Part shown: piece after piece, positions 1,045 through 49,189 of the stretch | Layout: every line of letters starts with the position of its first letter | Position numbering within the stretch: position 1 is the first letter of the stretch | From: an uncultured Gammaproteobacteria bacterium | Lineage (GTDB): Bacteria; Patescibacteriota; Microgenomatia; UBA1406 | Reading direction: 5' to 3' | Assembly: GCA_964414145.1 (NCBI GenBank) | Contig: CAYPVH010000001.1 | Span: forward strand, 220,851-284,850 | DNA: 64,000 bases | Notes under the pieces: generated by a model | Databases searched by the model: none | The model's input: the letters and a program-made list of their open reading frames with translations, nothing else | Told to the model about the DNA's origin: nothing | Translations under genes and position numbers: made by a program

Positions 1045-1344
1045 TTAAATATTTTTTAATGTTCTTTTAAGAATTTGTTTTAGCTGATCTCTGCCAAAGC
1101 CGGATTTCAAAAATACTTCTCTAGCTTTAGCATCAGCTTTATTGATGAAGTATTCGTAATGAATAAGGCTGAAAGGAGTACGTAGACGGGTAGATTTAAC
1201 CTGATTTTTAGAGTGTTGAGTTAGACGTATTTTTAAATCGGATGTAAAACCAATATACAAGCCTTTATCTCTTAAAAAATACAAAACATAAACATAATAC
1301 TTGTGATTGCCGTAAGAAGGAATAGAAACGTCTAACGTTTCCAT
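1045..1344 (-). CDS. GIY-YIG nuclease family protein (small, URI-domain only), copy 1
   Basis: Motifs YYVYVLY…GLYIGFTSDLKIRLTQH…E match GIY-(x10)-YIG + R + H + E. The start is moved to the ATG at 1344 because the track ORF's extension (to 1488) overlaps the tmRNA 3' end and hairpins. TATAAT lies 9 nt before the ATG and there is no SD. Confidence 0.75.
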   Translation of the reverse strand: METLDVSIPSYGNHKYYVYVLYFLRDKGLYIGFTSDLKIRLTQHSKNQVKSTRLRTPFSLIHYEYFINKADAKAREVFLKSGFGRDQLKQILKRTLKNI

Positions 1345-39677: not shown

Positions 39678-39971
39678 CTATTCTACGGAATATGCGTTCT
39701 GGACTAGAGATTTTAGACTTTCTTTAAGCATTATTCTCAAAGTCTTCTTACCGCAAGTGGTTTTGAAGTACTTTTCTCTTCTTGTTGCATCATGTTTTGA
39801 ATAGAAGAATTCACAAAACAGTAGTGTGAACGGTCTTCGAAAAGAAGTAGCCAAAGAGTGACCGTTGACATGGGCAGTTAATCTGTTGTGAAGATTTGTT
39901 GTATAGCCAATATAGAAACACTTATCCTTTAAACTATACAATACGTAAACACAATACTGGAGTTTCTTCAC
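39678..39971 (-). CDS. GIY-YIG nuclease family protein (small, URI-domain only), copy 2
   Basis: Motif YCVYVLYSLKDKCFYIGYTTNLHNRLTAH…E. The track start (TTG at 40004) lies inside a hairpin, so the in-frame GTG at 39971 is preferred. TATAAT lies 9 nt upstream and there is no SD. Confidence 0.7.
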   Translation of the reverse strand: MKKLQYCVYVLYSLKDKCFYIGYTTNLHNRLTAHVNGHSLATSFRRPFTLLFCEFFYSKHDATRREKYFKTTCGKKTLRIMLKESLKSLVQNAYSVE

Positions 39972-40174: not shown

Positions 40175-40292
40175 TCCCAGAAGTAGCTTTTTCGCTACTG
40201 CGAAATTAGCACTTCGGGATCCCGTATTTCTACGCCAAATTCTATCATAAATTAAGGGATTTTATCAAAAATTTGGCTAGAAAGTACTGGGA
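40175..40292. mobile_element. About 118-nt structured mini-element bounded by TCCCAG…CTGGGA, between tRNA-Tyr and its decayed 5'-half copy
   Basis: The plus strand starts TCCCAGAAGTAGC…(inner hairpin TTTCGC-TACT-GCGAAA)…GCACTTCGGGATCCCG (40175-40224). A second hairpin GCCAAATT-N-AATTTGGC follows. The element ends AAGTACTGGGA at 40292. Confidence 0.5.
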
Positions 40293-40535: not shown

Positions 40536-40597
40536 CAGATTAGTTATCAGTTGTCAGAAATAAGTTGTCAGACACTAGTTATTAGGTAACAAAAGAG

Positions 40598-40945
40598 ATG
40601 TATTCTTTTGAAAAACTTAAGGTTTGGCAAAAGTCTTTAGAGTTAATCAAAGACATATATCGTACGTGTGAAGAATTGCCAAAACAAGAAAGAACAAATT
40701 TAATAGACCAGATAAAAAGAGCGGCAACATCAATAAATTTAAATATTGCCGAAGGCGGTGGGGCAGAAAACAAGAAAGAAAATAAAAGATTTTTATATAT
40801 GGCAAGAAAATCTCTTTATGAAGTAGTAGCAATATTGTTAATTATTGAAAGGCTATACAAAATAGATATAACTAATCAAAGAAAGCAAGTTGATGAAGTT
40901 GGTAAAATGCTTAACGGGTTAATAAAGAGTTATAGTATAAGTTGA
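40598..40945 (+). CDS. Four-helix-bundle protein of the 23S rRNA intervening-sequence (IVS) / Avd-like family
   Basis: Carries FEKLKVWQKSLELIKDIY…LIDQIKRAATSINLNIAEG…RFLYMARKSLYEV, the signature of the S23-ribosomal/IVS-protein family. Confidence 0.8.
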   Translation: MYSFEKLKVWQKSLELIKDIYRTCEELPKQERTNLIDQIKRAATSINLNIAEGGGAENKKENKRFLYMARKSLYEVVAILLIIERLYKIDITNQRKQVDEVGKMLNGLIKSYSIS

Positions 40946-40988
40946 TAACTAGCTAATATTTACTAATAACTGAGAACTGAATGACTAA

Positions 40989-41108
40989 TTTTGACTGACA
41001 ACTGACAACTGAGAACCGACAACAGACAAATTTTGACTGACAACTGACAACTGAGAACCGACAACAGACAAATGTTGACTGACAACTGACAACTGAGAAC
41101 CGACAACT
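40989..41108 (+). repeat. 42-nt tandem repeat, about 2.9 copies, rich in CTGACAAC
   Basis: The unit TTTTGACTGACAACTGACAACTGAGAACCGACAACAGACAAA recurs with a period of 42 (unit starts 40989, 41031, 41073). The array runs up to 5 nt before tRNA-Ser(UGA). Confidence 0.85.
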
Positions 41109-41113
41109 AAATT

Positions 41114-41200: not shown

Positions 41201-41320
41201 CACTGATATTTCTTAGCGAGTAATCGAGCTTAGAAACAACAGTGCCCGCCAGTAAATGAGAGAAAAAGCCGTGTGTGCTTGTCCTGAGTATCTCGAAGGA
41301 AATATAACCCCATAAGACTT

Positions 41321-41368
41321 GTTCACGAATATGGCGGGCGTATTTACAAGCTACGGCGAGACAAAGTC
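41321..41368 (+). repeat. 48-nt module homologous (45/48) to the sequence immediately 3' of GIY-YIG copy 3
   Basis: GTTCACGAATATGGCGGGCGTATTTACAAGCTACGGCGAGACAAAGTC matches the reverse complement of 48326-48373. No ORF lies between it and tRNA-Ser(UGA). Confidence 0.8.
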
Positions 41369-41541
41369 AGCCGGACAAAAGCGTATGTGGGATTTATATT
41401 TACTGAATCAAAAAAAAGCAAAGTTGTAGAATTATTCCCACTATACATCAGTATGGGTTAAGTGATATAATTTACCTTTCTCTTCTACACTTAAGTCCCT
41501 GTGGTTAGTGCAAGAGATAATATTATTTGAAAACTAAAAAA

Positions 41542-47949: not shown

Positions 47950-48081
47950 ATGAAAAAAGAGGTAAAGAAAATAACAACAATTAAGATTGGAAGTAAACAG
48001 ATAGTTAGGGATCAGTTTAAAACTGAACTTAAAAAACTTATTGGTCTGGGGCAAAAATTACCCTTACAAAGAATTACATAA
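47950..48081 (+). CDS. Small basic hypothetical protein (43 aa)
   Basis: MKKEVKKITTIKIGSKQIVRDQFKTELKKLIGLGQKLPLQRIT*. It is below the track cutoff and is supported only by the upstream promoter-like sequence. Confidence 0.3.
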   Translation: MKKEVKKITTIKIGSKQIVRDQFKTELKKLIGLGQKLPLQRIT

Positions 48082-48129
48082 AAAAAGAGCATTACTACCG
48101 CTCGCGGGGGCTGCGACGTATAGTAATGC
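48081..48129 (-). terminator. Rho-independent terminator closing the minus-strand tRNA-Ser(GCU)/GIY-YIG unit
   Basis: The minus strand reads GCATTACTA-(GC-rich 23 nt)-TAGTAATGC followed by TCTTTTTTT. Confidence 0.55.
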
Positions 48130-48343
48130 CCTAGTTATTCTGAATTGTACTAAATTAGATTTTTTTGTCAAATTAATTTTACTCAAAATATTCCTATTCT
48201 TATTATTGTAGGTATCGTTATTGACCAGTTAAGAACGAATTTTGTTTACGCTCTTAATCGGTAGACTTTGTCTCGCCGTAGCCGAGCTTCAGCGAGGCGA
48301 ACCCTGCTTTCGCTTTTATCAGGCGGACTTTGTCTCGCCGTAG

Positions 48344-48681
48344 ATTGTAAATTCGCCCGCCGTATTCGTGAACTTAGTATTTGAAAAAATGTTTCTTCAT
48401 AAACGCCCTACCAGAACCAGACTTTAAATATTTTTCAAATTTAAAAGCTGTAATTTCTTTATCAAATGCAAAGTATAGTTTCAGAGCTACTGGTGTTCTA
48501 TTTTTGGTTGCCTCAATGTAATTACTGTTATGCATTTGTAATCTGTCTTTTAGGTTATTTGTACATCCAATATATGTTCTGTTGTCATTACAAATAAGAA
48601 CATAAACGTAGTACATGGAATAATTGTAGCGGATTTGTATCGCTAAGCCTCAATAAATTTTGACTTTTTTTAGACAAAATT
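48344..48681 (-). mobile_element. 338-nt cassette carrying GIY-YIG copy 3, inserted in the loop of a repeat-unit hairpin
   Basis: Its boundaries are defined by where unit 2 departs from units 1 and 3 (after TTCGCCTC and before CTACGGCGAGAC). It contains a 5' hairpin GCCTCAAT…ATTGAGGC, a TACAAT box, the ORF and a 30-nt 3' tail. Confidence 0.55.
48374..48616 (-). CDS. GIY-YIG nuclease family protein (small, URI-domain only), copy 3
   Basis: MYYVYVLICNDNRTYIGCTNNLKDRLQMHN…E. TACAAT lies 6 nt before the ATG and there is no SD. Confidence 0.7.
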   Translation of the reverse strand: MYYVYVLICNDNRTYIGCTNNLKDRLQMHNSNYIEATKNRTPVALKLYFAFDKEITAFKFEKYLKSGSGRAFMKKHFFKY

Positions 48682-48753
48682 GAGGCGAATCCCGCTTTCG
48701 CTTTTATCAGGCGGACTTTGTCTCGCCGTAGCCGAGCTTCAGCGAGGCGAAGG

Positions 48754-48839
48754 CGGAGGAGGTGGGATTTGAACCCACGTGAGCCAAAAGGCTCGCAGGT
48801 TTAGCAAACCTGTGCAATGGACCACTATGCGACTCCTCC
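48754..48839 (-). tRNA. tRNA-Ser (anticodon GCU), class II
   Basis: GGAGGAG-TC-GCA…TGC-A-CAGGT-TTGCTAA-ACCTG-(17-nt variable arm)-GTGGG-TTCAAAT-CCCAC-CTCCTCC-G, followed by CC. Confidence 0.9.
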
Positions 48840-48889: not shown

Positions 48890-48979
48890 GAAAAACTTTC
48901 TCAACGGAACGTTGAGATTAGTTTTCGGGATCCCGAAGTACTAAACCCGATGAGTTTCATCGGGAAGTTACTTCTGGGA
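48890..48979 (-). mobile_element. 90-nt structured spacer or mini-element between the two copies of the tRNA-Ser 5' region
   Basis: The minus strand reads TCCCAGAAGTAAC-(hairpin CCCGATGAAACTCATCGGG)-TTTAGTACTTCGGGATCCCG, then the hairpin GAAAAC-TAATCTCAACG-TTC-CGTTGAGAAA-GTTTTTC. Its ends resemble those of the tRNA-Tyr and tRNA-Gly elements. Confidence 0.55.
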
Positions 48980-49100
48980 CAAACCTGTGCAATGGACCAC
49001 TACCTGCCCGCATTGCTATGCAAAGCGTTGCAGGCGGGTGCGACTCCTCCAATGAACCTGCCTTTTAATTATAACCCAAAGCCCCTTTCGGTTTAGTCCC
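48980..49100 (-). pseudogene. Duplicate of the promoter plus tRNA-Ser(GCU) nucleotides 1-34, with a 36-nt insertion in the D-loop
   Basis: Identical over 85/85 nt to 48805-48889 apart from the insertion at 49003-49038 (plus strand cctgcccgcattgctatgcaaagcgttgcaggcggg). It ends after G34 and joins TCCCAG. Confidence 0.75.
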
Positions 49101-49189
49101 TTATAACTTTCTTAGCACAGATATTATACTAAATGGAATAGTCACACTTAAGTGAAAATTAACTTAATTGTATTCCGTATAATAAGTTT

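Follow-up and report, generated by a model that had tools for sequence, protein, structure and literature searches.

A rod-shaped RNA and a small GIY-YIG nuclease gene behind tRNA genes of Patescibacteria and Bacteroidota

A nuclease gene in the trailer of tRNA-Ser(GCU)

We analyzed a stretch of 64,000 nucleotides (nt), referred to here as the window, from contig CAYPVH010000001.1 of an uncultured bacterium placed in the Patescibacteriota, in which an open reading frame (ORF) for a GIY-YIG protein of 80 amino acids (aa) lies among copies of a 62-nt repeat that we have termed element E. Repeat and ORF follow a transfer RNA (tRNA) gene, tRNA-Ser(GCU), which occupies positions 48839–48752 of the minus strand (called by ARAGORN and matched by the Rfam tRNA model with 58 bits). 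The interval is the 3′ trailer of this tRNA and contains one instance of a widespread arrangement in three parts: tRNA, structured RNA and nuclease gene. Loci from other genomes and metagenomes that were compared in the analysis carry L-numbers.

All features of the trailer lie on the minus strand. The tRNA sequence ends in ...CTCCTCC-G73-CC, and the TTCG of the first, intact unit, E1 (48751–48690), comes immediately after it; E1 scores 78.3 bits (E-value 2e-18) with R1, the covariance model of the element described below. Next come the first 8 nt of a unit, TTCGCCTC (48689–48682), which the first-pass annotation took as the left part of a second unit, then an insert of 338 nt (48681–48344) and a 42-nt piece, E2R (48343–48302), that corresponds to unit bases 21–62 and is identical to E1 at 40 of the 42 positions. 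A further 62-nt copy, E3 (48301–48240), closes the series. That annotation gave the coordinates and sequences of the repeat, insert and ORF exactly, and it was right that the repeat resumes in register after the insert, as 8 bases, 12 missing bases and 42 bases make up 62. Chance is excluded as the source of the repeat, with one 18-mer found four times against 0.02 expected, and an assembly artefact is ruled out by contigs 100% identical to the window, which were recovered from five samples and which in three of them (L001/L003, L005 and L006) cover the entire array. Tandem Repeats Finder does not report the array because the ORF interrupts it.

The insert is made up of a 65-nt leader, the ORF (48616–48374; 80 codons, 243 nt including the stop codon) and a 30-nt tail, GTTCACGAATACGGCGGGCGAATTTACAAT (48373–48344). 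The leader forms an AT-rich hairpin, GCCTCAATTTTG...ATTGAGGC (48647–48686), with a fold z-score of −5.1 and none of 200 shuffled sequences as stable. The hairpin had been described before as GCCTCAAT...ATTGAGGC and is real, but its 5′ arm begins inside the TTCGCCTC stub and uses the GCCTC of the truncated unit. Likewise confirmed is the TACAAT box (48623–48628), which sits 6 nt 5′ of the ATG as a −10 element in the layout TACAAT-TATTCC-ATG. The layout is the same in the closest relatives (L088, L095, L106 and L107, and also L090; 74–84% protein identity), which keep a −10-like hexamer, TAAAAT, TAGAAT or TATAAT, 6–7 nt before the ATG, several with an extended TG. No Shine-Dalgarno sequence was found before the ATG in the window ORF or in these five relatives, and the nuclease mRNA is likely to be leaderless, judging from the sequence.

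The ORF product was correctly identified as a GIY-YIG domain protein, with a match to Pfam PF01541 over residues 1–70 (E-value 4.9e-14; 52.8 bits against a cut-off of 22.6). Six residues (Y5, Y15, G17, R25, H29 and E61) are invariant in 21 aligned sequences that include both paralogues in the window; all six fall in the conserved GIY-YIG motif region, where a catalytic role is at most predicted. The solved structures nearest by profile are 1zg2 (BH0048; E-value 2.9e-14) and 1ywl (EF2693; E-value 9.5e-11), followed by SLX1, and the protein is by prediction a stand-alone GIY-YIG nuclease of UPF0213-like type. Homologues are numerous: 1,895 were detectable and 3,170 representatives of 50%-identity clusters were matched, mostly of 78–130 aa, with the named ones largely from Patescibacteria. 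NCBIfam returned only sub-threshold matches, to group I intron endonucleases. Among the PADLOC defence models the protein found motif-level matches only (E-values of 1e-3 or above), and the PHROGs phage families gave nothing specific, the match being to a generic homing-endonuclease family (5e-4). A phage origin was considered and ruled out, as IMG/VR gives no matches for E and two weak partial ones for the protein.

The window contains three GIY-YIG ORFs, each on the same strand as, and directly 3′ of, a stable RNA gene: transfer-messenger RNA (tmRNA), tRNA-Tyr or tRNA-Ser(GCU). The paralogue behind tRNA-Tyr (39678–39971, minus strand) is 34% identical to the ORF studied here and has its own hairpins and promoter, and that behind tmRNA (1045–1344, minus strand) is 41% identical. 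Upstream of the tmRNA paralogue (1045–1453 of the minus strand with its leader) there are a terminator and three hairpins whose loops are of the GTCAAAC type. Homologues linked to tmRNA also occur in L013 (1685–2037) and L016 (760–1175), where mini-rods of the form GTCCCAC-GAAG-CTTTAG-CGAA-GTGGGGC precede the ORFs, and a tmRNA-specific GIY-YIG subfamily appears to be conserved across species.

A structured RNA between tRNA and nuclease gene

An alignment of 28 E units (A2) yields an RNAalifold consensus in which E is a rod of three stems, and R1 was used to score its copies. P1 pairs columns 6–11 with 59–64 and P2 pairs columns 15–17 with 53–55, with a symmetric GAA/GAA internal loop separating the two; P3 is an apical hairpin with a single-base bulge (columns 25–32 with 36–42). 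Paired cells make up 95% of the alignment at these positions, compared with 33–47% when the partners are slid, and the covariation score of 0.304 (0.179 for shuffled alignments) is reached by none of 500 shuffles. Double changes occur at six pairs, and compensatory pairs are found at 11–59 (UA 12, CG 12), 17–53 (GC 12, UA 11) and 32–36 (CG 20, UA 8). The stems hold 31 G·U against 5 A·C combinations, and R1 scores reach 80 bits in the sense direction and at most 38 bits in antisense. Because of these compensatory pairs, the excess of G·U over A·C and the weak antisense scores, we assign the structure to RNA of the tRNA strand, on which the comparative evidence marks E as a conserved structured RNA. 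The minimum-free-energy fold of E1 is the same rod (−22 kcal/mol).

E as a peptide-coding sequence is ruled out, since 62 nt is no multiple of 3 and the variation is not codon-like. The 3′ motif of E, GCGAAGGCGG, was also considered as a pairing partner of CCGCC|UUCG at the junction of tRNA and E, but this pairing was not established: one compensatory case was found (L076), and the E 3′ strand covaries with s1, the first stem strand of E, instead of with the junction. Rfam 15 places no family on E in the window (E-value threshold 10) or in 10 loci (threshold 1), with tRNA alone matching, and none of its known RNA families, ribozymes included, matches E or the X module described below.

The three copies of the window differ in their ability to form the rod. 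E3 is identical to E1 over nt 1–38 and decayed over the last 24 nt (13/24 matching); its R1 score is 44 bits with pairs broken, as the decay disrupts the 3′ strands of P3 and P1, and an alternative fold is predicted. E2R is missing the 5′ strands of P1 and P2 and so cannot form the rod; its P3 is intact and its R1 match is partial (25 bits, model positions 15–55).

The same elements recur across species. In a genome scan of 80 loci from 80 species of Patescibacteria and Bacteroidota, a same-strand tRNA lies 60–320 nt upstream of the ORF in 62 loci (55 Ser, 5 Trp, 1 Asp and 1 Ala), a copy of E lies in the tRNA–ORF spacer in 65, and only 6 have neither, the arrangement being present in at least 74 of the 80 species examined. 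By a rough estimate that assumes a few dozen tRNA genes per Mb, a same-strand tRNA this near would be found for less than 1% of random genes. E usually starts with UUCG, 0 nt from the tRNA end, and 49 of 56 tRNAs occupied by E carry G73-CC-U after the acceptor stem, where tRNAs without E vary. We are confident that these loci represent a widespread arrangement in which a tRNA gene, mostly tRNA-Ser and ending in G73-CC, is followed by at least one copy of the rod RNA E of about 62 nt and a GIY-YIG gene of about 80 aa. We found no description in the full-text literature of GIY-YIG genes linked to bacterial tRNA genes, none of the E RNA, and none of a linkage of UPF0213 proteins to tRNA genes or structured RNA.

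Copy number and context of E vary among loci. Solo copies without the ORF occur in L011, L055 and L062; the copy in L062 is the spacer between two tRNA-Ser genes, and solo E otherwise lies behind tRNA-Ser. Two metagenome loci, L103 and L105, have 3–5 tandem units between the tRNA and the GIY-YIG ORF, and both arrays close with a truncated unit, followed by AT-rich sequence and then the ATG. The junction at the end of the array is TTCGTCTC|AAATT...ATG in L103 and a 16-nt stub in L105, and 3′ of both ORFs there are terminator-like hairpins and no remainder of a unit. Stubs of 6–16 nt before the ATG are common across loci. A mini-rod, shorter than E and of the form stem-GNAG-CUUUAG-CGAA-stem, also precedes ORFs, including those linked to tmRNA.

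Other repeats and tRNA-like structures were seen in the same positions. In L010 the P3 hairpin alone is repeated, in eight copies of 21 nt (1023–1210), L050 has repeats of about 51 nt in its trailer (1032–1300), and L038, from the Bacteroidota, has repeats of about 100 nt between the tRNA and the ORF (1690–2000). In L088 (230–309), L106 (170–223) and L107 (1760–1795), E is preceded not by a complete tRNA but by a tRNA-like minihelix, GGGAGYTATAAGGAC...GTTCCAGACC...GCTCCGCC, which goes uncalled by ARAGORN; L107 also has a GTTCCAGACC... fragment 3′ of its ORF.

The position of E suggests how it might act on the gene behind it. The distance from the 3′ end of E to the ATG has a median of 13 nt, and in 8 of 32 loci the E 3′ strand resembles GGAGG. 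In loci where E adjoins the ATG, this purine-rich strand (GGCGGG or GGAGG) would stand at the ribosome-binding position, and P1 pairing would occlude the ribosome-binding site, holding nuclease translation down and keeping at a low level the expression of a nuclease gene that is read through from the strong tRNA promoter. Such an occlusion would resemble the hairpin that reportedly controls translation of I-TevI.

Origin of the interrupted repeat and mobility

The first-pass annotation described the 338 nt as a discrete cassette that had replaced a 12-nt loop in the second repeat unit, so that a TCGCC/GGCGA hairpin stem would enclose the ORF. That hairpin is unsupported by covariation or by the minimum-free-energy fold, and its GGCGA is the 5′ strand of P3. 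The 62-nt unit folds instead into the P1/P2/P3 rod. The 12 replaced bases, unit bases 9–20 (GCTGAAGCTCGG), comprise two P1 pairs, half of the GAA loop and the 5′ strand of P2; because they are stem strands and not a loop, E2R is a crippled unit rather than one side of a hairpin with a large loop. Nor does any stem enclose the ORF: its flanks pair no better than cross-locus controls (75 loci, p = 0.32), and the flanks in the window itself are unremarkable, with 31.5% of controls equalling or exceeding them in stability. The ORF thus interrupts the E series in the window and is not lodged in a hairpin loop.

Neither boundary of the insert is as clean as it first appeared. On the right, the tail and a partial E (unit bases 21–62, 35/42) recur on the plus strand at 41321–41392, in the trailer of tRNA-Ser(UGA), which has no ORF. 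The tail matches at 27 of 30 positions in this copy, and the contiguous block that joins it to unit bases 21–53 (41321–41383) matches at 57 of 63, with the partial E continuing to 41392. Since the same block stands at tRNA-Ser(UGA) without the ORF, the junction tail|CTACGG is independent of the ORF. No residual ORF homology was detected in the tRNA-Ser(UGA) trailer, where the 63-nt tail-plus-E block alone matches; TTCGCCTC is missing as well, and upstream there is an X-like module enclosed by GCCCGCC...GGCGGGC. The tail scores as promoter-like in a promoter scan (TTCACG-17-TACAAT), directed into the defective E copies, and its counterpart at 41321–41350 has TACAAG in place of TACAAT. By sequence comparison the tail belongs with the partial E on its 3′ side, and its membership with the ORF is not demonstrable; rather than ending a cassette, it may close a pseudo T-arm module.

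The X module is a pseudo T-arm with a loop carrying ATGAGAAGTTTAYCCTGAG...GGGAAT; an acceptor 3′ strand like that of a tRNA comes next, and after it E. It was seen in L017 (2860–2915), L018 (2860–2930), L055 (2815–2890) and L095 (60–135), and an X-like core lies in the window (41202–41320, plus strand). A reading of X as a hammerhead (CUGANGA...GAA, judged by eye) was dropped, as the core is broken in most copies.

On the left, truncated units before the ATG also end the arrays of L103 and L105, where no unit remainder follows the ORF, and the eight matching bases of TTCGCCTC are weak evidence for an interrupted unit because stubs of this kind are common before the ATG. Of the two cassette ends, the 5′ end is unique in the window, and the tail was found only at 41321 and in contigs of the same population. 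An intact junction of units 1 and 2, which would mark an empty site, was searched for by exact match in the Joint Genome Institute (JGI) collection, with no matches. This negative is weak: a relaxed junction pattern failed to return even the window's own E2–E3 junction, so that collection lacks this population.

Comparison with other genomes nonetheless indicates that the nuclease gene is lineage-specific and probably mobile DNA beside the tRNA, and to this extent the cassette reading holds, while the 338 nt are not established as the unit that moves. The nearest syntenic genome, represented by L097/L098, has the gene order ligase – EEP – tRNA-Ser(GCU) – ABC2, and its EEP protein is 59% identical, so the relationship is distant. 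Its tRNA-Ser(GCU), inverted relative to the window, ends in ...CCGCA|ACTT with no E and no ORF, and its tRNA-Ser(UGA) is likewise without E. In L039, L085, L017, L050 and L072, a copy of the tRNA 3′ end, 11–17 nt long, stands after the ORF, giving the layout complete tRNA ...CCGCC | E | ORF | copy of the tRNA 3′ end. The copies have plain endings in L039, L085 and L017 (...CCGCA, ...CCGCT and ...CCGC|T, respectively) and end in ...CCGCC in L050 and L072. L038 and L080 also have a downstream copy of the tRNA 3′ end, with the tRNA further upstream and no E match in the spacer. Because tRNA 3′ ends are duplicated after the ORF, E and the ORF appear to have entered these genomes together, as a unit with a replacement 3′ end, rather than as an ORF cassette dropped into a repeat. 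The same architecture is found in the free-standing GIY-YIG genes of fungal mitochondria. Additionally, an E segment identical at 20 of 20 positions in a Weeksellaceae genome points to exchange across phyla.

Taken as a whole, the explanation that we lean towards combines the three-part arrangement with a mechanism of the following kind. A selfish gene would be mobile, taking E and a replacement tRNA 3′ end with it. E would be transcribed along with the tRNA and is probably a processing or insulating module that lets the tRNA still mature, and the tandem and partial copies of E would arise by slippage or recombination around the element. For the more specific proposal, a selfish element that resides at tRNA 3′ ends and resembles a homing endonuclease gene, our preference is tentative, and we give it somewhat less than an even chance.

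Several points weigh against this explanation. Function is inferred throughout, as regards nuclease activity, target site and transcript ends. To our knowledge, the homing enzymes that have been described, such as I-TevI, owe their specificity to a DNA-binding domain, and the 80-aa protein, of which the GIY-YIG domain takes up residues 1–70, is without one. A host function would be compatible, too, with a family that is strongly conserved and present in several copies in very small genomes. The two parts can be separated, since E is found without the ORF, and in some E variants local hairpins (s1:s2) rival part of the rod. No ORF-less allele was found in the population, all of whose recovered assemblies are identical, and the metagenome scan is a weak one with the population's samples absent from it. 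Finally, the near-identity of E2R and E3(1–38) to E1 is most simply read as an ORF segment landing in a homogeneous array.

This last point is the core of the rival that fares best, in which a homogeneous E1–E2–E3 array came first and a discrete ORF segment was then inserted in unit 2, replacing bases 9–20. The exact register of the two halves of unit 2 speaks for such an insertion, as do the 40/42 and 38/38 matches of E2R and E3(1–38) to E1, which are as expected of homogeneous arrays like those of L105 and L103. Solo and ORF-less E copies would be possible insertion targets, and the truncation point after TTCGYCTC, which the window has in common with L103, could reflect a preferred insertion site. 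We nevertheless consider this history unlikely. The tail and E bases 21–62 form one block at tRNA-Ser(UGA), where there is an X-like module upstream and neither ORF nor TTCGCCTC; nothing E-like follows the ORF in L103, L105 or about 75 other species; and truncation points before the ATG range over unit bases 6 to 16. The replaced bases, moreover, are stem strands and no stem encloses the ORF, and in other genomes E and ORF arrive jointly.

A second rival takes the GIY-YIG protein as a domesticated host factor instead of a selfish gene, either a structure-specific nuclease or a factor for RNA processing or repair that acts on tRNA genes or on E, for which E would be a cis-regulatory or substrate RNA. 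Residues of the motif region are strongly conserved across thousands of homologues, the nearest solved relatives are UPF0213 proteins and SLX1, itself a structure-specific nuclease, and the family is essentially absent from viral contigs. The presence of three paralogues within 64 kb in a reduced genome, located behind three different stable RNA genes, and the retention of the tmRNA-linked subfamily in other species would fit this role as well. What makes it improbable in our judgment is that the arrangement is missing at both tRNA-Ser loci of the nearest syntenic relative, that E and ORF are flanked by duplicated tRNA 3′ ends, that near-identical E segments are distributed across phyla, and that decayed copies exist, such as the one in the UGA trailer of the window.

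It has also to be asked whether the RNA structure is incidental, with E a set of DNA palindromes like repetitive extragenic palindromic (REP) elements or miniature inverted-repeat transposable elements, whose hairpins or cruciforms would serve as nuclease or recombination sites while the nuclease mobilizes them in trans. Tandem arrays of near-identical units and solo copies would be expected of such palindromes, and the four stem strands are related (s1 is like s3, and s2 like s4), which allows alternative local hairpins. Yet the ratio of 31 G·U to 5 A·C in the stems and the much weaker antisense scores argue for RNA, the orientation and position of E are fixed on the tRNA strand right after the tRNA 3′ end, and the covarying long-range pairs 11–59 and 17–53 are unexplained by local palindromes; we regard this reading as very improbable. 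Least probable of all is that E is a functional RNA partner of the mini-nuclease, a tRNA 3′ extension with the acceptor 3′ strand ...CCGCC at its 5′ side that recruits the 80-aa protein, or directs it, to those tRNA genes (Ser, Trp and Asp) whose acceptor ends match, in an RNA-assisted, tRNA-primed homing, by the logic of omega-RNA with IscB or TnpB but with a GIY-YIG fold.

Two further features lie on the minus strand near the locus. A probable small RNA gene at 48075–48171 has a promoter that matches the consensus at 11 of 12 positions (TTGACA-16-TACAAT), a hairpin of about 50 nt, GGGCAUUACUA...UAGUAAUGCUC, a GC-rich internal segment and a U7 terminator; its sequence is kept beside the EEP gene in L097, L098 and L099, and it has no Rfam match. 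At 48902–49112, the promoter of tRNA-Ser(GCU) and the 5′ half of the tRNA are duplicated in tandem. In this pseudo-copy, nt 12 is followed by an inserted GC-rich hairpin of 36 nt, and the copy ends in the anticodon loop (nt 35); 3′ of it there are hairpins of the type TCCCAGAAGTA...TACTTCGGGA, with a similar hairpin upstream of tRNA-Tyr (about 40180–40240).

Relation to known systems

Free-standing GIY-YIG homing genes include the seg genes of phage T4 and ORFs of fungal mitochondria that supply the host gene with a new 3′ end, the original one remaining downstream. SegB lies in the tRNA region of T4 and T6 (PMC13096335). By analogy, the system described here works most like a free-standing homing endonuclease gene: the nuclease gene lies beside, not inside, a conserved host gene, a second copy of the host gene's 3′ end follows the ORF, and the comparison with the distant L097/L098 suggests that related genomes may differ in its presence. 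It differs in that the protein is the catalytic domain alone, at about 80 aa, in that the hosts are bacterial chromosomal tRNA and tmRNA genes, and in that a conserved structured RNA stands alongside, with the whole essentially absent from phage contigs. In size the protein resembles the single-domain proteins of the UPF0213/YhbQ type (COG2827; 1zg2 BH0048 and 1ywl EF2693), which have about 80–107 aa, but identity to them is modest and the linkage to tRNA and structured RNA was found here only, the literature search having returned no such report for them.

Some likeness is also seen to other associations of a structured RNA with a nuclease. The HEARO RNA, or omega-RNA, goes with IscB and takes its name from ‘endonuclease-associated RNA and ORF’; there, too, a conserved structured RNA lies just upstream of a small nuclease ORF in a multi-copy and probably mobile unit. 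The nuclease here is GIY-YIG rather than HNH/RuvC, however, and the protein is far too small for an obvious RNA-guided effector; no guide segment is indicated in E, which also occurs without the ORF, and Rfam gives no match to HEARO. REP elements with RAYT transposases, and integrative elements that target tRNA genes, share with our system the short GC-rich structured repeats beside a nuclease-type gene and the targeting and duplication of a tRNA 3′ end. Our system, in contrast, has neither an HUH transposase nor an integrase and measures no more than about 0.4 kb in all, and the E repeats have a fixed orientation at tRNA ends and the covariation of an RNA.

Ribosomal RNA (rRNA) intervening sequences, which can carry an ORF and are excised by RNase III, were the comparison drawn in the first-pass annotation. 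The systems are alike in that extra ORF-bearing sequence on a stable RNA gene must be removed from the transcript. The comparison fails in that the ORF stands after the tRNA and not within it, with no enclosing stem, and in that the conserved helix E lies wholly upstream of the ORF and starts after the G73-CC of a complete tRNA. Elsewhere in the window, between tRNA-Cys and tRNA-Ser(UGA), a region on the plus strand (40537–41113) contains a four-helix-bundle gene of the 23S rRNA intervening-sequence type (TIGR02436; ORF 40598–40945), with GTTGTCAG repeats upstream, three 42-nt tandem repeats of the CTGACAAC type downstream, so that inverted GTTGTCAG repeats enclose the ORF. In L097, a few bases and no ORF separate tRNA-Cys from tRNA-Ser(UGA). 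This ORF suits the intervening-sequence analogy better than the GIY-YIG ORF does.

If the explanation that we favor is correct, thousands of genes annotated as ‘GIY-YIG nuclease family protein’ in Patescibacteria and Bacteroidota would be selfish genes at the 3′ ends of tmRNA, tRNA-Ser and further tRNA genes, and the rod of about 62 nt with its GAA/GAA internal loop, which Rfam lacks, would count as a new RNA motif with good support. That explanation would also raise the questions of how essential single-copy tRNAs of minimal genomes mature with a structured parasite fused to C75, and of how a nuclease of 80 aa finds its target. The arrangement would further explain one source of the tandem repeats, partial tRNA duplications and assembly breaks near tRNA genes in metagenome-assembled genomes.

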